Source: a virus (taxonomy: Duplodnaviria > Caudoviricetes). From it: a DNA stretch of 64,000 nt. Positions 8,911 through 59,333 of the stretch are shown one piece after another. The stretch is from the IMG/VR virus record IMGVR_UViG_3300028888_000061, positions 32,001-96,000 of that record; one strand, written 5' to 3'. Both the position numbers and the translations under genes were made by a program. How positions within the stretch are numbered: the stretch's first letter is position 1; the number at the start of each line of letters is the position of its first letter. The notes beneath the pieces were generated by a model. It saw only the letters and a list, made by a program, of their open reading frames with translations. It was not told the DNA's origin and did not search any database.

Positions 8911-9113
8911 TGAGAACAGACTCAGCTTCTTAGAAGCTATGCATCAACTTTAAAAAAGAAACGTTCTGATACCGCCTCAGTCAGTTCAATTCGGTTGGTG
9001 CTTTGTCGAGAGGAAGTCGTTACGCCCTACGGGCGGGACGCACTACATCGGCTCTCATGCTGATGGCTTACAGCAACACTTTTTCATTTGGAATGCAAAA
9101 CATCCTCACAAAT

Positions 9114-9204
9114 GAGTCAAATTTGGTCTGTACGAAAAAGTTACGTGCTTACCTTAGAAGTACATGCCAAAAACAAAAAATCGCGTAGAACGAAAATTAG
9201 ACCC
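9114..9204 (-). repeat. ~92-bp palindromic dispersed element, copy C (inverted, degenerate core)
   Basis: Reverse complement reads GGGTCTAATTTTCGTTCT...ATGTACTTCTAAGGTA...GTACAGACCAAATTTGAC, homologous to copies at 10879, 53011 and 54046. Confidence 0.8.
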
Positions 9205-9228
9205 GTTCTATGCGATTTTTTGTTTTTG
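9168..9228. terminator. Long hairpin between convergent transcription blocks (likely bidirectional terminator)
   Basis: CAAAAACAAAAAATCGCGTAGAACG / CGTTCTATGCGATTTTTTGTTTTTG, 25-bp stem with one G-T pair. Confidence 0.75.
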
Positions 9229-9246
9229 CCTTACAGGTGGTGGTTA

Positions 9247-9741
9247 TTATCGAGTGAGTAAAGGAAACTTGTCGTAATCAAGCATTGCGTACACAACGTC
9301 TTTCAGACTGAGTTCACCATTTCTGTACCCATCGTGCAGAACAGAGAAATCGTGACGTTCAAAGTTCTTAGCTTGTATCCCGGCTTTGCTTATAAGGCCA
9401 TCACGGTCAGTGACATTAAGAGATTTCCATATAAGTGAGAACAATGCATTAGGGTCAATTTCGACAAGACCGTGCGTAAGTAAGTCATGTGGTCTGTACA
9501 TGCGATTCTCGGCGAAGCAGAAAATGCGTTCTCCGTCATCATCCTGATACAGTTTGGCTGCACGTGTGTCCGTATTGTCATGGAACGGACAGAAGCAAGA
9601 TCCACTTCCAGTCACACCAAGTCCTGATGAAACGATACTGTACTTTGACTGAAGCAGGTCTTCAAACGGAATGAGTCTGTCTATGACCTGATGAATAAAC
9701 TCATTGGAAAAGGTTTCCTGCTTTACTTGTGTGTCGTTCAT
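9247..9741 (-). CDS. Stand-alone primase zinc-binding (CHC2-like) domain protein
   Basis: CPFHDNTDTRAAKLY...IFCFAE; the last Cys of the CHC2 motif is replaced. Confidence 0.65.
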   Translation of the reverse strand: MNDTQVKQETFSNEFIHQVIDRLIPFEDLLQSKYSIVSSGLGVTGSGSCFCPFHDNTDTRAAKLYQDDDGERIFCFAENRMYRPHDLLTHGLVEIDPNALFSLIWKSLNVTDRDGLISKAGIQAKNFERHDFSVLHDGYRNGELSLKDVVYAMLDYDKFPLLTR

Positions 9742-9780
9742 AGCAAATTCAGAAGCTCCGGGAATCTTTCTTTAAGTCTC

Positions 9781-9842
9781 TGCCATACTCAGGACTCGAA
9801 CCTGAATCCGAGAGTTGTTTTACCATATTAAACTACACGCCC
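9781..9842 (-). pseudogene. tRNA-like remnant with D and T arms but no anticodon arm
   Basis: GTTT-AATATGGTA-AAAC and TCAGG-TTCGAGT-CCTGA separated by about 11 nt; acceptor stem does not pair. Confidence 0.55.
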
Positions 9843-9848
9843 ATAAGA

Positions 9849-9919
9849 TGTGCCCACAAGGACTTGAACCTTGATAGACTGATTAAAAGCCCGCTATTCT
9901 ACCTTTGAATTATAGGCAC
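9849..9919 (-). tRNA. tRNA-Lys (UUU), weak anticodon stem, CCA not encoded
   Basis: Acceptor GTGCCTA/TGGGCAC, D arm ATTC/GAAT, loop CT-TTT-AA, T arm CAAGG-TTCAAGT-CCTTG. Confidence 0.75.
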
Positions 9920-9925
9920 ATAAAA

Positions 9926-9995
9926 TGCTCCAATAGAGAAGCGAATAAAGCTCTATGTTTAAAAACCTTTACTCTATCCGTTTAGCTATGGAGCA
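9926..9995 (-). ncRNA. tRNA-like fold with aberrant anticodon and T arms
   Basis: Perfect TGCTCCA/TGGAGCA acceptor, TAGCTAAACGGATAG D-like arm, ATAGAG/CTCTAT stem with a 12-nt loop. Confidence 0.45.
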
Positions 9996-10122
9996 AATAG
10001 GTATTATCATAATCTCACGATTACTAACACCTGAGTAATCCACTTAGAAAAACACTAAGTATACTCACTTTCATTGTCACCAACTTCAGTGAGTTCTATA
10101 TAGGTAACCAGTCTATATAGAA

Positions 10123-10241
10123 TGCCGTGTCTGGGAATCGAACCCAAAGTCTGCATCACATCTCCGTGTCTTTAGGTATGACTTCCCTAAATGGTTTTAC
10201 CGAAGAATCTTGACCCGTTACGACCACTGAACTTTCACGGC
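10123..10241 (-). ncRNA. Oversized (~119 nt) tRNA-like RNA
   Basis: GCCGTG/CACGGC acceptor, AGTGG D loop, TTGGG-TTCGATT-CCCAG T arm, about 65-nt middle including hairpin TTTAGG/CCTAAA. Confidence 0.5.
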
Positions 10242-10289
10242 TTGATGCATGTTTTGATACAGACTATCTGCCAAACAGCTTAAACACCA

Positions 10290-10562
10290 CTAAGCGTCTT
10301 TATAAGACGAACAAAATTCTTCAATACACTCCATCAGAATTTCCTCTGAGACTGCTTCAGGTCTTAGTACAAAGATACCTGACCAGTCATCGACCGTACC
10401 GAGTTCATCAGATTCAAAAACCATGAACTCATAAGGTGTTTCGTAAAGGTCACGTCCGCATTGAAGGTCAATAAGGTCTGCAAAATACCAGTGACCATTA
10501 AACTGGAACACACCGCTGATTTGGTTTCTGTGTTCAGAACGAGTTATTCTAACATCAATCAT
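10290..10562 (-). CDS. Hypothetical protein
   Basis: ORF with AGGAG RBS, coupled to the upstream ORF. Confidence 0.7.
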   Translation of the reverse strand: MIDVRITRSEHRNQISGVFQFNGHWYFADLIDLQCGRDLYETPYEFMVFESDELGTVDDWSGIFVLRPEAVSEEILMECIEEFCSSYKDA

Positions 10563-10756
10563 AAACTGCTCCTTCTAGCGTCATGTTGAATCATGCATGT
10601 GTAGTCATATCTCGAATAATTTCCAAGATTCTTTTCCAAGAGATTGCACGCATCGTTCAAAGCCTCACGTTCCTCGAACGAAAGATGACCGTACACTTTA
10701 TCCTTTATCCTGATAAGAGTCTCAATGACTTCGCCAACCATTTTTGTCTGCTCCAT
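10559..10756 (-). CDS. Hypothetical protein
   Basis: AAGGAG RBS, downstream of a box promoter. Confidence 0.7.
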   Translation of the reverse strand: MEQTKMVGEVIETLIRIKDKVYGHLSFEEREALNDACNLLEKNLGNYSRYDYTCMIQHDARRSSL

Positions 10757-10815
10757 GTCCGTTCTCCTTACTTACAGGGTAGCATTTATGCATGTGTGCT
10801 TCACATGACATGGAA

Positions 10816-10856
10816 ACAATACCACAGAAAAGAAAAAGCAAGCAGAACAGCACCAC
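10816..10856 (-). promoter_or_regulatory. Box promoter
   Basis: GTGGTGCTG-N26-TATTGT, spacer ends CTGTGG. Confidence 0.7.
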
Positions 10857-10878
10857 GAAAATGAACATACCTATAAAT

Positions 10879-10969
10879 GGGTCTAATTTGCTCTGTACAC
10901 GATTTTTCGTTTTAGACGTGTACTTACTAGGGTAGGGGCGTAACTTTTTAGTACAGGGCAAATTTAGCT
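10879..10969 (+). repeat. ~92-bp palindromic element, copy D
   Basis: AATTTGCTCTGTAC...AGACGTGTACTTACTAGGGTA...GTACAGGGCAAATT. Confidence 0.85.
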
Positions 10970-10986
10970 GGTATATGAACGAAAAA

Positions 10987-11018
10987 GAAAAGGGAGCATG
11001 AAACCATGCTCCCTTCTC
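10987..11018 (-). terminator. Intrinsic terminator
   Basis: AAGGGAGCATG-AAAC-CATGCTCCCTT with a U-tract on the - strand. Confidence 0.75.
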
Positions 11019-20842: not shown

Positions 20843-22291
20843 GTCAACTACCAACAGCCTAAAGGCGGTTGGCTTGTAACTGACCCGTAGCTCTTGAGCG
20901 AGTCTTTGAAACTCTACTACGTTTTTTACCAATCTTCTTTTCAGAAGATTGGCTGTCGTTACATCGTTGGGTGATTGACTGCACCCCAACATTGAGGGAC
21001 ATACCCTCAATGTTTTCTGTTTGTTCTTTAATCCATTGAAGACCAAGATTAAACAGATTCATTGCTCCAATACGGTCATCATTTGAACGATAACCACAAT
21101 TACGACAACAGAAACAATGGAGCTTCTTGTCTCTGTTAGACTTTTCAATGTGCCCGCATTTCGGACAACATTGGGACGTGTAACGTGGGTCAACATTGAT
21201 TACTAAACAAGAATTTCGTTGCGCCTTATACTTCAACTTTTGCTCAAGGTCATAGTATGACCAGCTCACTTGAACATAACGATCTTTTCTTTTGACCTTT
21301 TCAGCTGCACCACGAATCCCCTTTAAGTTCTCAAGCACAAAAAGCGTTTTTGAAGGATTACTGGTAACGAGTGCCTTCGATACACAATGATTTACATCGT
21401 TCATCCAACGGTTTTCTCGTTGTCCGATTTTCTTCAAACGTCTTCTACTTGATGATGTACCCCGTTTTTGAAGTTCTGTTCTTAATTCTTTGTACTGCGC
21501 CCTTTTATGCTTTACTTTTCCTCCGTTAAAGAATGTAGATTTGCCTTTAGAGTCATAGCTTACTGCAAGAAAATTTATGCCACGGTCAATACCAACCACG
21601 TTGCATATCTCAGAAACCTCACAATCCTCAACTTCTGATGTGACAGGGATGTGTAGGTAGTATTTACGTTTTGAACAGACAAGCCGGGCTGTTCCGAACT
21701 TGAACTTGTCTTTGTCGAAATACTGCTCCATTCCTTTTATGTCGAAGGGTGCTTTAATCCGTCCATCTAAAGTGTTGACGCTAAACACACCTTGAACAAG
21801 CGAATAATCACGATTCCATACAAGGTCTAGTTGAGGCTTTTGGAACTTTGGTTGAATCCACTGATGCTCTTCGGCAAGAATAGTCTTATATTTGGCTATC
21901 ACCGTGATAATGGCAGAACAAGCCATCTGTGATTTCAGACCAAATTTATCACGCAATTCTTCATAAATATCGTTATGGATTATTTCTCGTTTAAGGCATT
22001 TGTTTTCAAAGCAGTAAGCCGCAATTCTGTCACAGGCAAGGGAATACTGCACCATTGAACGGTCAAGTATTTTACGAACTGACCGTTCTGGGTGTATCTG
22101 AACCTTAGCTGTGACAACGATTTTCGACATTATTCTACCTCAAAAAGAAAGTCACACTAATTGACTTTCATTAGAATAGATGATATAAGCAAATTTGTTG
22201 AAAATCAAATATTGAGAGATAAAAATCAAGAATATTCGGGTTGCTTTCATCCAACGAGCTTTAGCCTGTGGGTTTCCTGCTCGCGGTTCTT
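20843..22291 (-). mobile_element. IS200/IS605-family (IS1341-like, TnpB only) element 1
   Basis: Right end AAGCCAACCGCCTTTAGGCTGTTGGTAGTTGAC; left-end hairpin AACCCACAGGCTAAAGCTCGTTGGAT; left boundary inferred. Confidence 0.8.
20859..22130 (-). CDS. tnpB: RNA-guided endonuclease TnpB
   Basis: RuvC GIDRG / LENL / NDD.IGAMN, TSQ.CPKCG..C..CG zinc finger. Confidence 0.92.
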   Translation of the reverse strand: MSKIVVTAKVQIHPERSVRKILDRSMVQYSLACDRIAAYCFENKCLKREIIHNDIYEELRDKFGLKSQMACSAIITVIAKYKTILAEEHQWIQPKFQKPQLDLVWNRDYSLVQGVFSVNTLDGRIKAPFDIKGMEQYFDKDKFKFGTARLVCSKRKYYLHIPVTSEVEDCEVSEICNVVGIDRGINFLAVSYDSKGKSTFFNGGKVKHKRAQYKELRTELQKRGTSSSRRRLKKIGQRENRWMNDVNHCVSKALVTSNPSKTLFVLENLKGIRGAAEKVKRKDRYVQVSWSYYDLEQKLKYKAQRNSCLVINVDPRYTSQCCPKCGHIEKSNRDKKLHCFCCRNCGYRSNDDRIGAMNLFNLGLQWIKEQTENIEGMSLNVGVQSITQRCNDSQSSEKKIGKKRSRVSKTRSRATGQLQANRL

Positions 22292-33135: not shown

Positions 33136-33235
33136 CGTAAAACTCCTGTATGTAAACGAACTGACAGATTAACAGCTTATCAACACGAACATAACCATTA
33201 TGTTACAATGCATGTTAAGGTGAACTACCCACAGC

Positions 33236-34555
33236 CTAAAGGCGGTGTGCTTCAAATTCATTAGAATTTGATTTATCCATTCTCACGAATTGGACTTCCT
33301 GTTTCAACGAACAGTCCACATCACCAAAAGATTTGGTTCTGCTTCCCTGCCCTCCGCAGGCATAAGTTCCGATAGTTCCTACCGTACCTTTAATCTTGCT
33401 TATCGCATCATTACGCAAATTGATAGCCGCATTGTGATCCCTGCTATGTTCAAGTCCACAAGATGGACAAATCCATTTACGAACGCTCAAATTCTTTACA
33501 GCTTCATTCTTAAAACCACAATGACTGCACAACTGTGATGATGCAAACCACTTATCTGATTTAACAACAGAACAATTATGGAACGTGCTCTTCCATTCAA
33601 GCATATTCACAAATTTATTCCATGACACATCGTTGTAGTTCTTTGCGTTATGGCTGAAACGCATCATGCCTTTAATGTTCAACGTTTCAACACCAATCAC
33701 TTCATAACTACGGACAAGACGGAGAGTTTCTTTCTCCATCCAATCACGCCGCTTATTCGCTATATGTTCTTCAAACTTTGCCAATCGTCGTCTAGCTTTT
33801 TCACGGTTTTTGGAACCTTTCTTGGTTCTCGAAAAGTTCCTCTGTAAATGAGCCAGATGACGTTTTGCTTCTTGCTTGAATGGAACATAATTGTGTGCTG
33901 AGTGATTGTTTGAGTCTATGTAAGCCTTTGACGGAGAAAAATCCAGTCCGATAGCTTGGTTATCACTGCCGGAAAAAGACTTTTCTTTATCGTTCAAACT
34001 TTCATAGACACAACAAATCGAAGCATAACAACGTCCGGATTTAGTTACTTCAACGGTCAAGTTCTTCCGCTTTATCCATTTGTTATGAAACCATGCAGGA
34101 ATATGATTATGACGAAATGTGACCTTACCAATTTTTGGAAATTTCAACCACATTTCATGTTCTGAAAACAGATATTTTGACAGGTCTATTTCTCGAAACG
34201 AGCAACCATCCTTTTTCTTTTTGAAGTGTGGTTTTCCTTTCTTGCCTGCGAAGAAATCAGAGTATGCCTTCTGAGCATCACGACGTGCTTGTTGCAAAGC
34301 AACGGATGAGACTTCTTTCAAGAATGGAAATTGCTCACAAAGCTGTTTCTCTGTCTGGTACTTGAACGCCTTGTAAATCTTGTTCTTTTCATCTTTGTTC
34401 AGGTTACGACCTTTGATGTTATCAGCATAGAATTGTTCCCTTACTTCGACGTATTTGTTATAGACAAAGCGACGACAACCACCAGTTTTTATGAACATCT
34501 GAAACTGCTCTGGTGTAGGGTACAATCTGATTTTAAGACAACGCTTAATTTCCAT
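33236..34555 (-). CDS. tnpB: RNA-guided endonuclease TnpB
   Basis: IRLYPT.EQ..G..RFVYN HTH, GLDF / VETL / RDHNAAIN RuvC, SSQLCS.CG..W.CP.CG. Confidence 0.93.
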   Translation of the reverse strand: MEIKRCLKIRLYPTPEQFQMFIKTGGCRRFVYNKYVEVREQFYADNIKGRNLNKDEKNKIYKAFKYQTEKQLCEQFPFLKEVSSVALQQARRDAQKAYSDFFAGKKGKPHFKKKKDGCSFREIDLSKYLFSEHEMWLKFPKIGKVTFRHNHIPAWFHNKWIKRKNLTVEVTKSGRCYASICCVYESLNDKEKSFSGSDNQAIGLDFSPSKAYIDSNNHSAHNYVPFKQEAKRHLAHLQRNFSRTKKGSKNREKARRRLAKFEEHIANKRRDWMEKETLRLVRSYEVIGVETLNIKGMMRFSHNAKNYNDVSWNKFVNMLEWKSTFHNCSVVKSDKWFASSQLCSHCGFKNEAVKNLSVRKWICPSCGLEHSRDHNAAINLRNDAISKIKGTVGTIGTYACGGQGSRTKSFGDVDCSLKQEVQFVRMDKSNSNEFEAHRL

Positions 34556-52546: not shown

Positions 52547-52978
52547 TCAGACACCCGTATGACCGAATCCTCCTGAACCACGCTCCGTGGTTTTATCGAC
52601 AGAAACCACCTGATGAAAATCCACGGTCTCATGCTTCATTACGACCATCTGTGCGATACGGTCTCCTATCGCAATGATAAACGGCTTCTGGCTCACATTG
52701 CACAGAATGACACCAACCTCACCCGTGTAATCAGAATCTACCGTTCCAGGGCTGTTTAAAACAAACACACCGTGTTTTGCAGCAAGACCACTTCTGGAAC
52801 GTATCTCGACATGATAACCTTTCGGAATGTCCATACGCAGTCCTGTACGAACGACACGAAACTCATTTGGTAAAAGCATCACTGCCTCGGCAGAACACAA
52901 ATCCGCACCTGCAGCTTCCTCTGTCGAATAAACCGGCAGCTTGGCTGTCCCAATCATTAACTCAATTCCAATGTCCAT
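52547..52978 (-). CDS. dut: Trimeric dUTPase
   Basis: AGADL, RSGLA, GTVDSDYTG, GDRIAQ, RGSGGFGHTG. Confidence 0.95.
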   Translation of the reverse strand: MDIGIELMIGTAKLPVYSTEEAAGADLCSAEAVMLLPNEFRVVRTGLRMDIPKGYHVEIRSRSGLAAKHGVFVLNSPGTVDSDYTGEVGVILCNVSQKPFIIAIGDRIAQMVVMKHETVDFHQVVSVDKTTERGSGGFGHTGV

Positions 52979-53010
52979 GAAAATCTCCAAAAATGGAACA
53001 CGTCCGTAAA

Positions 53011-53102
53011 GGGGTCTAATTTGCGTTCTGACGCATTTTTTACTTTAGACGTGTACTTACTAGGGTAAGGTCGTAACTTTTTAGTACAGGGCAAATTTGA
53101 CC
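53011..53102 (+). repeat. ~92-bp palindromic element, copy A
   Basis: AATTTGCGTTCTGACG...AGACGTGTACTTACTAGGGTA...TACAGGGCAAATTT. Confidence 0.85.
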
Positions 53103-53119
53103 GCTCTGTGTTTGAAATG

Positions 53120-53860
53120 TCACAGGGTTATCTGACAGGGGATGGTCATCGTCTCTCTGATACGTTTTATCTGCGTCCACAAATTGCGTGCTTCCTGTTC
53201 GATTTCATCTTTTGTTCTGTCCTTGTTCCAGTCAAGGGTAATAACATGAGAGAACCGTGACAGATTTGAAGTGAGCTCTCGGTACTCTGCGATAAGTCCT
53301 TCCATGTACTCACGCGGTATGCTGCTCTCGCACTTCCGTTTTTCTTTCTCGCTGATACGCTGTGCAAGACGGCGCATCGAAGTGTCCGGTGAAACATCCA
53401 GGTAAACAAAGCATTGCGGGTACATAATCTCCCGAGACATGTTGTGGAACAGCTCAAAGTAGCAGTCTGCTTCATCATGCGTCATATCGCCGGACTTTTC
53501 GAGTTTGCACACAAAAATCGAATCCGACCAGATAGAGCTGTCGGCGACAGAGTTTTCTCCGTTCATTGCCATCGACTGAGCAAGACGTGTCTGCTCCAAG
53601 CGTTTGTTCAAAAGGTAAATCTGAATCGTAAACGCCCATCTCGGAACGTCCTTGTAGTACAAAGCAAGGAATGGATTCTTTGACCCCTCATCGTCTTCGG
53701 TAGCAGGCTCAAACATTGTCCTGCATGGTTTCCCTGTATCTTCTGCAATCGCTTTGGCTAAAGCACGACAAAATGAGGTCTTGCCGGAAGCAATGCACCC
53801 GATGACAGGAATATGAACTCCTGATGGATAAACGGCGCAGCGAAAATTTGAAATGGTCAT
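53120..53860 (-). CDS. Deoxynucleoside kinase
   Basis: GCIASGKTS, EP...NPFL.LYY.D..RWAF..Q, YLD, RI..R..E. Confidence 0.9.
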   Translation of the reverse strand: MTISNFRCAVYPSGVHIPVIGCIASGKTSFCRALAKAIAEDTGKPCRTMFEPATEDDEGSKNPFLALYYKDVPRWAFTIQIYLLNKRLEQTRLAQSMAMNGENSVADSSIWSDSIFVCKLEKSGDMTHDEADCYFELFHNMSREIMYPQCFVYLDVSPDTSMRRLAQRISEKEKRKCESSIPREYMEGLIAEYRELTSNLSRFSHVITLDWNKDRTKDEIEQEARNLWTQIKRIRETMTIPCQITL

Positions 53861-54045
53861 TGGAATCTCCTTGCTTTGCAGTGAACAAAACAGCGAACAG
53901 TGTGTCCGCAACACTATGCCTGTCTGATACGAACAATGTGGTTTTAGCGTCAACAATAACAGGTGCATTCGTTCGACAAACACGATTAAGACAGAAAGTC
54001 ATTTTCGTCAACAAAGAACAGCAAAAAACAAAACACGTCCATAAA

Positions 54046-54136
54046 GGGGTCTAATTTGCCCTGTATGCGATTTTATGACACAGACGTGTACTTACTAGGG
54101 TATGTTCAAAATCGTCGTCAGAACGCAAATTTTGGC
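54046..54136 (+). repeat. ~92-bp palindromic element, copy B
   Basis: AATTTGCCCTGTA...AGACGTGTACTTACTAGGGTA...CGTCAGAACGCAAATTT. Confidence 0.85.
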
Positions 54137-54159
54137 TGCCATGCTGCGAAGTTTAAGGT

Positions 54160-54600
54160 TTGGTGCGGGCAGAGGGTTAAAACCCCACCAAAGAATTCGA
54201 GGTGCATATCCACAGGGTGCGGGCAGAAGGTTAAAATCAAAGTAACGACCACAAACAGGAGCGAAACAAGGGTCACGACTACGTTCTTGATGACAGCATT
54301 GTTCAAACCATGACTATGTTTTTCCACAGGATAATTTTTCAGGATGCGATGCTAGAGCATAAGTTACGACTACGATCTTAACGACAGGATGCTGATGCTT
54401 ACGCATGACATGACTTGACTACGTTCTTGATTACAGGTGAAGACTTTACAGGAATTCGAGCTTGAACGCTCTTTGACATGACTATGTTCTTTACTACAGG
54501 ATGTGATGCTTACGCATGGCATGGCATGACTATGTTCTTTCAACAGGATGATTTCAGGATGTGATGCTAAAACATGACATGGCATGACTAAGAACGTCAC
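54160..54600. repeat. Iteron-like direct repeats
   Basis: GGTGCGGGCAGA(G/A)GGTTAAAA twice; about six copies of GACTA(C/T)GTTCTT-N3-5-ACAGG, several followed by GATGCT. Confidence 0.8.
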
Positions 54601-54609
54601 TTTAAGATT

Positions 54610-54880
54610 TTTGCAAACCTTCAAAAATACGTTCATCTCCTTGATTTTATTGACATTTTAAATTTATTTCACTTTGGCATGTTTTGTGCAATATATTATA
54701 TAATCAAAGTTAATACAATCTAATCTTTCTCTCTTTCTCCTCACTTTCTATCGAAAGTGATTATATTGGATTACTTTTGATTATATAATATATTGCACAT
54801 AGTATGCCAAAATTTAAAAAATTTTTAAAAGTGTTGAAATTGTTGAAGTTCAGACAGTTTTCAGAAAATTTTGAAAGCTG
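54610..54880. other. AT-rich large inverted repeat; candidate replication origin
   Basis: TGTGCAATATATTATATAATCAAA / TTTGATTATATAATATATTGCACA perfect 24 bp; gene strand and base skew switch here. Confidence 0.65.
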
Positions 54881-57971: not shown

Positions 57972-58037
57972 GCATGATGCGGTAAAGGTGTCATGCCTTT
58001 GTTTTTACTGTCCCATTTACTTTTGTTCGGAGAAGTT

Positions 58038-59333
58038 ATGCCAAGAGTGTCTGCAAAAAGTACGGTAAAGAAGAGTTCATCACGTGGTGCGAAGAAGGAA
58101 ACGTCATCTGCTGCGGTTGAAAAGAGAACCCGTAAATCCAGTAAACCAAGCAAACAAGTCGCAAAGGAAGTTGTAAATGACACAGAAGAAATCATTGAGG
58201 AGACTCTTACAGAAATAACAGAAGACGGTGAGCAGGTTTCGGTTCGTGTAACGAATGATTCCAATGCCGGTAAGGATGTTCAGATTGAGGATTCTGAGTG
58301 GAATGAGGATAATCAGAGAGACTTGGAAGCCTTTAACGCTATGCCAGAGGCACGCAGGAAGTACTATGACAATTTGACGGCTGCGGTGCTTCGAGACCGT
58401 AAGTATATCAAGTCTGGCAGTTTCGTTCTCGACGCAATCCTGTCTGATGGTCAAGGAATTCCTACAGGAACGTTCATTGAGCTGACTGCACCGTATGCCG
58501 TCGGCAAATCAAGTCTTCTTTTGTTCATGTGTAAGAATCTTTGTGACCAAGGATATCGTTGTGCTTACATCGACACAGAGCGTGGACTGAACGACAAACA
58601 GATTGCGAGTTTTGGGCTTACGAATCATACCAAGTCTCGTATGTTCCTGCCGATGACTATCGACACGTTTGAAGAAATTGACGAGTTCTTATGCAATGCT
58701 TTGACTGATGATACGTTGAAATTTATCGTTGTCGATTCTTTAACGGCTGCTTCTGCGTCCGATATGATTGAGAAGGAAACTGGTCAGAATCAGACATTGG
58801 CTATCCATGCACGTACAATTTCTGCGTTCTTGCGACGGTTTAGGTCTAAGTTCGGCACATCCGACAAGACTATTTTCTTTGTGGCACAAAACCGAAAGCA
58901 GTTTACTCAGTACGGTGCACAGGACGGTGCAGCCGGTGGCGAGGCACAAAAGCATTACATGGACATCACTATCCGGATGAAATTAAAGGACAAGCTGACC
59001 AGAAAAATAAAAGGCTCTACCGAGAAGCAGCAGTATGGAACGATATGCACGATTATGTGTGACCCAAAGAACCGTTTCTGCAGTCCACGTATTCCGATGA
59101 GCATCGCTATCGTGTGGGGCAAGGGTGTTTCAAATGCAGCCGCTCTTTATGACGCTTTAGTGAGTCAGGGAAAAATCACGCAGAAAGGTTCTTTTTATGT
59201 GATTGAGGGCGTCGATGGACGTGAAGAGCAGTTTCGTGGTCAGGACGCCGTCACGTTCTATATCTCACAGCATTCGGATTATTATTTAAGGCTTGTTGAA
59301 CGTCTTGGTGGTATCCGGCTACCAAAGGTGTAA
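58038..59333 (+). CDS. recA: RecA/UvsX recombinase with ~110-aa N-terminal extension
   Basis: SGS..LD.IL..GIP.G..EL, GKS, YIDTE, IVVDSL, GGEA.KHY, KNR..P. Confidence 0.92.
   Translation: MPRVSAKSTVKKSSSRGAKKETSSAAVEKRTRKSSKPSKQVAKEVVNDTEEIIEETLTEITEDGEQVSVRVTNDSNAGKDVQIEDSEWNEDNQRDLEAFNAMPEARRKYYDNLTAAVLRDRKYIKSGSFVLDAILSDGQGIPTGTFIELTAPYAVGKSSLLLFMCKNLCDQGYRCAYIDTERGLNDKQIASFGLTNHTKSRMFLPMTIDTFEEIDEFLCNALTDDTLKFIVVDSLTAASASDMIEKETGQNQTLAIHARTISAFLRRFRSKFGTSDKTIFFVAQNRKQFTQYGAQDGAAGGEAQKHYMDITIRMKLKDKLTRKIKGSTEKQQYGTICTIMCDPKNRFCSPRIPMSIAIVWGKGVSNAAALYDALVSQGKITQKGSFYVIEGVDGREEQFRGQDAVTFYISQHSDYYLRLVERLGGIRLPKV

Follow-up and report, generated by a model that had tools for sequence, protein, structure and literature searches.

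The closest described counterparts of the repeats considered here are the promoter-early stem-loop (PeSL) cassettes of T4-type phages, whose mechanism, including proposed mini-circles, has been set out in two papers (Arbiol et al. 2010, PMC2839356, for mechanism and mini-circles; Comeau et al. 2014, PMC4122927). Two similar elements, termed A and B, flank the gene of a deoxynucleoside kinase (dNK) in a 64,000-nucleotide stretch of phage DNA (the window), which comprises bases 32001-96000 of the 138,361-bp IMG/VR virus record IMGVR_UViG_3300028888_000061 (G000, estimated to be 72% complete). Like PeSLs, they are conserved intergenic motifs of ~100 bp with a terminator-type stem-loop (here by its sequence features), their family is found next to variable or accessory genes and where indels separate close relatives, and a single gene enclosed by two copies in direct orientation could leave as a mini-circle with one chimeric element and re-insert at a further copy through homologous recombination. 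In contrast to PeSLs, the elements have an invariant core of 21 nucleotides, a 35-nucleotide module and two alternative hairpin forms, number ~6-8 rather than ~50 per genome and reside in large uncultured phages of the ruminant gut, for which mini-circles are a proposal only. On balance, A and B are probably regulatory repeats of a PeSL-like kind, and homologous recombination at their conserved core would account for the shuffling of arms and neighbouring genes.

A hallmark of the A/B pair is the crosswise correspondence of its arms. An identical core in direct orientation around an insert, with the flanking arms exchanged, is also what Campbell-type integration of phages and islands leaves behind as attL and attR, and a first, sequence-only reading of the window had likened A and B to such sites of a gene cassette. 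Its description of the pair is borne out by exact matches: A and B share the core in direct orientation around dNK, the sole gene between them, the left arm of A is the exact reverse complement of the right arm of B (16 nucleotides), and the left arm of B is likewise that of the right arm of A (13 nucleotides). The exact core occurs three times in the window, always on the + strand, where shuffled sequences lead one to expect none. Each copy indeed pairs better with the other (A-left with B-right, -33.6 kcal/mol; B-left with A-right, -38.9 kcal/mol) than with itself (-21.7 kcal/mol for A and -24.7 kcal/mol for B). It also holds that two hairpins with much better pairing would be regenerated by a crossover in the core: the recombinants, modelled in silico, fold with -35.6 (z-score -6.2) and -40.0 kcal/mol (z-score -6.3), compared to -24.9 (z-score -1.7) for A and -25.2 kcal/mol (z-score -1.1) for B. 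By this gain, A/B is the top one of the 15 copy pairs in the genome (-26.1; runner-up, -11.3), and when the copies of relatives are included it ranks second of all 136 pairs, because B scores well with any A-like copy. Since seven of the matched nucleotides in each arm form a motif conserved throughout the family, and the right arm matched by B-left over 13 nucleotides is common to six copies, the specificity of the match is lower than its raw length suggests.

A and B are members of a larger family in a small clade of large rumen phages. The sequence-only reading knew three copies (A, B and C); a profile search of the G000 genome revealed six full copies and a partial one, two of the full ones outside the window. 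Searches with the core pattern and with family models yielded at least 15 further copies in related rumen phages (the relatives compared are the IMG/VR contigs G001-G006, of which G006 is 96% complete, and two metagenome contigs of ~240 kb). To these, a scan of metagenomes for the core contributed at least three true copies among the matches listed, besides many chance matches. Nothing in Rfam matched the elements at E-values up to 1, and megablast of the region against GenBank phages gave no match.

The elements are ~110-125 nucleotides long, all of them intergenic, and are organized in the following manner, from left to right: a left box (S or X), a loop motif, the left arm with a T-run, the 21-nucleotide core and a right half. 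Box S is the complement of the left arm, and box X is a conserved alternative. In the S form (D, E1, F, G001b and G001c), S and the left arm form a stem with 13-14 of 14 positions paired, which, lying between A-runs and T-runs, has the look of a bidirectional intrinsic terminator; in D, a 25-bp stem (9168-9228) has A-runs and T-runs on either side. In the X form (A, B, G001a, G003, Ga23_a, G005_B and G001d), the partner of X is the 5' end of the core, with 6-7 of 7 positions matched (7 of 7 in A), and G001d shows a compensatory change in this pairing; in copies without X, the 5' end of the core drifts and the remaining core is fixed. The right half is mostly the conserved 35-nucleotide M module. 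B is unlike most copies in this respect: its right half matches the R2 arm, found also in G005_B, JAEE, G002b and all G006 copies, which mirrors the left arm, so that a single long hairpin results, which has the core region as its tip. Hairpin-type copies have whole-element minimum free energies of -35 to -42 kcal/mol, and in 13 of 14 copies the + strand gives the more stable fold. RNAalifold found no structure common to the 14 copies, whichever orientation was used, as architectures differ within the family.

The core is identical at 21 of 21 positions in eight copies, whereas the genes of the phages that carry them differ by 10-20% and the arms nearby are hypervariable. An invariant core beside hypervariable arms indicates that something reads the core sequence, and the core is probably also a putative recognition site for a sequence-specific protein or RNA. 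Stop codons in all three frames of the + strand (TAG, TAA, TAA, then TAG) lie where the 3' part of the core passes into the beginning of the M module (53061-53090 in the window, and the corresponding part of the other copies), so that translation entering from the left would terminate in whichever frame it runs.

In bacteria, palindromic repeats between genes are familiar as terminators or processing sites, namely the REP/BIME repeats of E. coli and the Correia elements of Neisseria. The likeness comprises multiple copies, intergenic position, co-transcription with genes, inverted-repeat ends (~12-20 nucleotides in several of the rumen copies) and effects on termination or RNA processing. The rumen elements differ by their location in phage genomes and their unique invariant core; moreover, neither target-site duplication nor presence/absence polymorphism was found: no duplicated flanks were noticed, and for every copy with a comparable locus in a relative that locus is occupied as well.

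How arms and cores combine across the family bears directly on the origin of the A/B state. The left arms fall into two loose types: those fitting M (E1, C, G001a and B) and those fitting S or R2 (A, D, G001b-d, G003, G005_A, G005_B, Ga23_a, JAEE and G002b). A left arm of the S/R2 type together with M, the mismatched combination of A, is the commonest in the family, and the exact left arm of A recurs with M at an unlinked locus of G001 (G001d), whereas B is the only copy seen with a left arm of the M type (L1 type) and an R2 right arm. C, to which the combination of A had been ascribed, does not have it; its left arm pairs with its right arm over the whole arm with a single G-T mismatch. The caveat of that reading, simple shuffling of arms within a repeat family, has nevertheless become the better-supported general explanation. 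Orthologous copies differ in their arms while their flanking genes are 85-93% identical, and the left arm of G005_A, the counterpart of A in G005, is identical to that of the unlinked G003 copy, which indicates that left arms evolve in concert within a genome. The JAEE copy is self-paired, and its arms match A-left and B-right arm for arm, a small asymmetry included; A-left and B-right therefore belong together as the halves of a real element type. The most economical origin of the A/B state is an exchange in the core between an element of this A-left/B-right type and one of the M type.

Conversely, A and B may never have exchanged anything: old consensus arm types (L2 with M in A, an L1-like arm with R2 in B) would simply have been inherited, and the mutual fit would be a by-product of there being few types. 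The motif that distinguishes A-left/B-right is indeed present in JAEE, G001d, G006a, G006d and G006e as well; in addition to the wide sharing of the right arm that B-left matches, other copies with L2 and M gain similarly when B is held fixed (G001b, -31.1; G001d, -21.5). This explanation is nonetheless unlikely: A is the only exact partner of B-right in the genome and at the same time the nearest neighbour of B, both matches are perfect although arms elsewhere diverge quickly, and the joining of an L1-type left arm to an R2 right arm was seen only in B.

In the closest relative that has the dNK locus, G005 (locus L009), the region is 85% identical over 3.6 kb and the order is the same: B', dNK, A' and dUTPase. 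A'-left and B'-right are again the best partners (-39.0 kcal/mol), through different sequences that have changed on both sides. The inner pair, B'-left and A'-right, is poor (-18.7 kcal/mol), and B' is moderately self-paired (-26.9 kcal/mol); the reciprocal arm swap is hence present in G000 and absent in G005. This conservation of the outer fit could mean that A-left and B-right form a duplex of 16-21 bp in the leftward transcript or in single-stranded DNA, bracketing the dNK message, for instance as an RNase III stem, and kept by selection. Several two-sided changes, among them a matching loss of one base in each arm, and the energies of the duplex in both phages, each better than the arm pair of B itself, are what such a predicted stem would entail. 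Yet the identity of the G005 left arm with the unlinked G003 copy speaks for concerted evolution instead of a constraint specific to the pair, the inner complementarity has not been kept, and the sole promoter-like site of dNK lies downstream of B, so that B-right may fall outside the dNK transcript. A functional long-range pairing is therefore quite improbable; the complementarity of A-left and B-right in the two phages is explained in part, with a small chance that it reflects such a stem.

Within the A-B region, the elements are the least conserved part in the comparison with G005 (63-78% identity, as opposed to ~93% for dNK and 73-95% for the neighbouring genes). A recent transfer of dNK was considered and rejected: its identity is no outlier among its neighbours. 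The relatives of the dNK gene are 97%, 81% and 78% identical to it. Upstream of the dNK ribosome site, G005 has an insertion of ~45 nucleotides that is absent from the window (L009:3940-3985); it closely resembles the end common to the two tnpB elements of the window (20843-20875 and 33220-33252) and may be the solo end or scar of a TnpB element.

The empty site predicted by excision of dNK was sought in relatives and in metagenomes. In the more distant relative G006, dNK adjoins a RecA-like gene ~95 kb away from dUTPase, followed by a plain terminator and without flanking elements; dNK is thus a movable module that has moved during the history of the clade. The closest relative, on the other hand, keeps dNK between both copies. 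An IMG/VR search with dUTPase and the 541-amino-acid gene that is the right-hand neighbour returned only the same relatives and no empty site. The stretch is represented in runs from sheep, cattle and goat gut metagenomes; among the Logan contigs of four gut metagenome runs aligned to it, none lacks dNK, and since such contigs drop rare variants, excision is neither shown nor excluded by them. A contig of 190 nucleotides (run X4) joins B-left, core and A-right (going back by 1035, with 47 letters on the shorter side). Its remaining 93 letters did not align to the stretch, so that another family copy or a strain variant is more likely than a circle junction; it was counted neither for nor against a circle.

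These observations have to be weighed against a dedicated cassette system, in which A and B are attL/attR-like hybrids and a site-specific recombinase of phage or host crosses the core and excises a ~1-kb circle with dNK, leaving two well-paired hairpins restored. In addition to the identical direct cores, the reciprocally swapped arms and the displaced dNK of G006, this model can draw on a resemblance to integron attC sites: imperfect palindromes (~60-140 nucleotides) at the 3' ends of genes in fixed orientation, with conserved ends or core, a variable middle or arms, and one strand that folds better, reminiscent of strand-specific folding. The enzyme, however, is not found. The absence of a site-specific recombinase, already remarked on for the window, extends to G000 as a whole, which lacks PF00589, PF00239 and PF01797 (tyrosine, serine and Y1 enzymes; 72% of the genome being covered); tyrosine recombinases (PF00589) are missing from G000 and five relatives including G006, whereas the controls matched in 14 of 14 genomes, and the nearly complete G006 has neither a tyrosine nor a serine recombinase. 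The only serine recombinase found in the clade is part of an IS607 tnpA-tnpB unit in G001. In this unit (G001:53908-55534; L193:4909-6535), the gene of a 197-amino-acid serine recombinase (TnpA) with a MerR-type helix-turn-helix domain overlaps the start of the TnpB gene; the MerR-type domain and the TnpB downstream identify it as an IS607-type transposase.

On neither strand do A or B contain an attC-type box, be it R'' (RYYYAAC) or R' (GTTRRRY). Unlike in integrons, there is neither an IntI-type recombinase nor an array beside an attI site, and cassette content did not vary among the relatives compared. In contrast to attL and attR, the rumen sites are a multi-copy family spread over the genome, have no cognate integrase that could be found, and are unswapped in the closest relative with the same insertion, where the inner arm pair is unmatched. 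Furthermore, the arm combination of A is common, also at copies without a neighbouring partner, and orientation follows transcription (see below), together with the look of a terminator. A dedicated cassette system is the least probable of the explanations considered, and the integron- or att-like part of the sequence-only reading consequently finds no support. A version that works with no known integrase, in which folded-strand sites let single genes with their own promoter, such as dNK, excise and re-insert at the 21-nucleotide core of large rumen phages, and in which the fit of A-left and B-right, preserved by compensatory changes, results from repeated insertion into the same hairpin or from a long-range stem, is very improbable as well.

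The position of the elements is linked to transcription. In 15 of 16 copies of the G000 clade (~7 independent loci), a gene reading towards the element has its 3' end on the right side, and the left side borders on a convergent gene or on the beginning of the next gene in the same direction. Orientation matches the local direction of the genes, even in small - strand clusters within + strand regions, and therefore follows transcription and not replication. A terminator scan located hairpin-plus-T-run sites inside A (a small + strand hairpin with a T-run at 53022-53035) and D. Most likely, the elements act at the 3' ends of genes as bidirectional terminators or insulators of transcription. In the S form this would be accomplished by a hairpin of 14-25 bp between A-runs and T-runs, and in the X form by pairing of X with the 5' end of the core plus the small hairpin of the left arm, with a T-run after each hairpin.

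Several copies sit between a terminator and the next promoter box. C is preceded, in the direction of transcription, by a canonical - strand terminator (10987-11018) and followed by a promoter box. The phage-specific box, RTGGTGCTG, stands directly after a terminator or element at a number of junctions, for example behind dNK in G006 (L010:4740-4790) and after the elements C (window 10840-10860), G003 and Ga23_b, a recurrent stop-then-restart layout. Readings of the core and the M module as sigma-70 or Bacteroidota-type promoters were tried, by eye and by scan, and none was convincing; in the X form, a weak match to TGGAAC/TTGAAC-N17-TAATTT can be seen by eye. A search for a T7-like RNA polymerase as reader of the core gave no match and is uninformative, as its control matched nowhere.

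The elements also coincide with boundaries of genome mosaicism. Homology between G000 and G004 breaks at the boundary of S and the loop motif in F, beside a two-gene indel of 2.4 kb: to the left of the F-type element, G002 and G004 have two extra genes (572 and 211 amino acids, family unknown) that are missing in G000 (L006:6244-8718 versus genome 103423-103528). C and G001a have a common right flank and different left flanks. The segment between the inverted copies D and C (window 9230-10860), with its small genes and tRNA-like sequences, has undergone rearrangement in the G003 and JAEE contigs: one gene is inverted, a paralogue and others are inserted in JAEE, and G003 lacks genes (L094 compared). 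The segment behaves as a hyperplastic region with an element at either end.

These features could be accounted for by the PeSL-like reading in the following manner: The elements would primarily be regulatory repeats at gene ends. As copies agree completely or almost so in the core, the loop motif and M, the phage's own recombination of the RecA/UvsX type can exchange arms and neighbouring genes, and the reciprocal arms of A and B would be the footprint of an exchange within the core. Two routes may have led there, with about even chances: (i) Campbell-type insertion of a dNK mini-circle, bearing a B-left/A-right element, into a resident A-left/B-right hairpin; (ii) gene conversion of single arms. 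A past insertion of a dNK mini-circle is thus possible; no dedicated recombinase would have been involved, and present mobility of dNK is unsupported.

Several observations sit uneasily with this reading. Only 21 bp of homology are available for the proposed crossover, and the A-left/B-right fit of G005, kept through different sequences, is not what purely neutral shuffling predicts. PeSLs have a strong sigma-70-like early promoter inside, whereas a consensus scan found no convincing sigma-70 promoter in A, B, C or D. A separate canonical terminator directly precedes C and three other copies, so that termination alone explains neither the family nor the invariance of the core. The terminator activity itself is predicted from sequence alone.

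The features of the locus are listed in Table 1. The promoter-like site in the gap between B and dNK is below the threshold of the consensus promoter scan; if it is real, the segment from core to core has its own promoter. From ~10 kb to 54 kb, the genes of the window are on the - strand, and + strand genes start to the right of a repeat region that B borders. This region, upstream of dNK, is a stretch of ~1 kb without convincing genes and rich in direct and inverted repeats: between 54200 and 54830 there are families of direct repeats of 20 and 36 nucleotides (54277-54597) and a 66-nucleotide inverted repeat (54660-54725 and 54759-54824). The cumulative GC skew turns there and the gene strands diverge; together with the repeats, this resembles a replication origin or control region.

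Table 1. Elements, genes and a promoter-like site of G000 (window positions unless marked as genome positions)
Feature	Position	Strand	Remarks
Element D, inverted degenerate hairpin-type copy	9106-9230	-	convergent gene junction; 13 of 14 stem pairs
Element C	10858-10980	+	exact core 10914-10934; own left and right arms pair
dUTPase gene	52547-52990	-	Pfam dUTPase, E-value 3e-31; PHROG 135, E-value 9e-53; directly downstream of A by transcription
Element A, X-type, ~120 nucleotides	52991-53110	+	between dNK stop codon and dUTPase start codon; nhmmer E-value 6e-31
Parts of A			X box; loop motif; left arm 53018-53033; core 53047-53067; 35-nucleotide M module with right arm 53085-53097
dNK gene, 246 amino acids	53120-53860	-	Pfam dNK PF01712, E-value 1.1e-33; PHROG 761
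Promoter-like TTGACG-N17-TAATCG (putative), gap between B and dNK	53983-54011	-	read from the sequence; L009 has TTGACG-N17-TATTCG
Element B, X-type left half and R2-type right half, ~120 nucleotides	54026-54145	+	nhmmer E-value 1.6e-27
Parts of B			left arm 54053-54065; core 54082-54102; right arm 54116-54131
RecA/UvsX-like gene	57993-59333		in the + strand gene region
Full copy outside the window	genome 11268-11380		
Full copy outside the window	genome 103501-103613		
Partial copy	genome 137235-137296		

The elements would represent a variant of the PeSL principle and not a new principle, and there is no evidence for new recombination machinery. If the PeSL-like reading is correct, the "linker" or PeSL principle exists in a separate version in a clade of very large, uncultured rumen phages: conserved intergenic repeats with a regulatory role would at the same time act as crossover sites, by which accessory genes are moved, here dNK with its role in nucleotide salvage, and genome modules are reshuffled.

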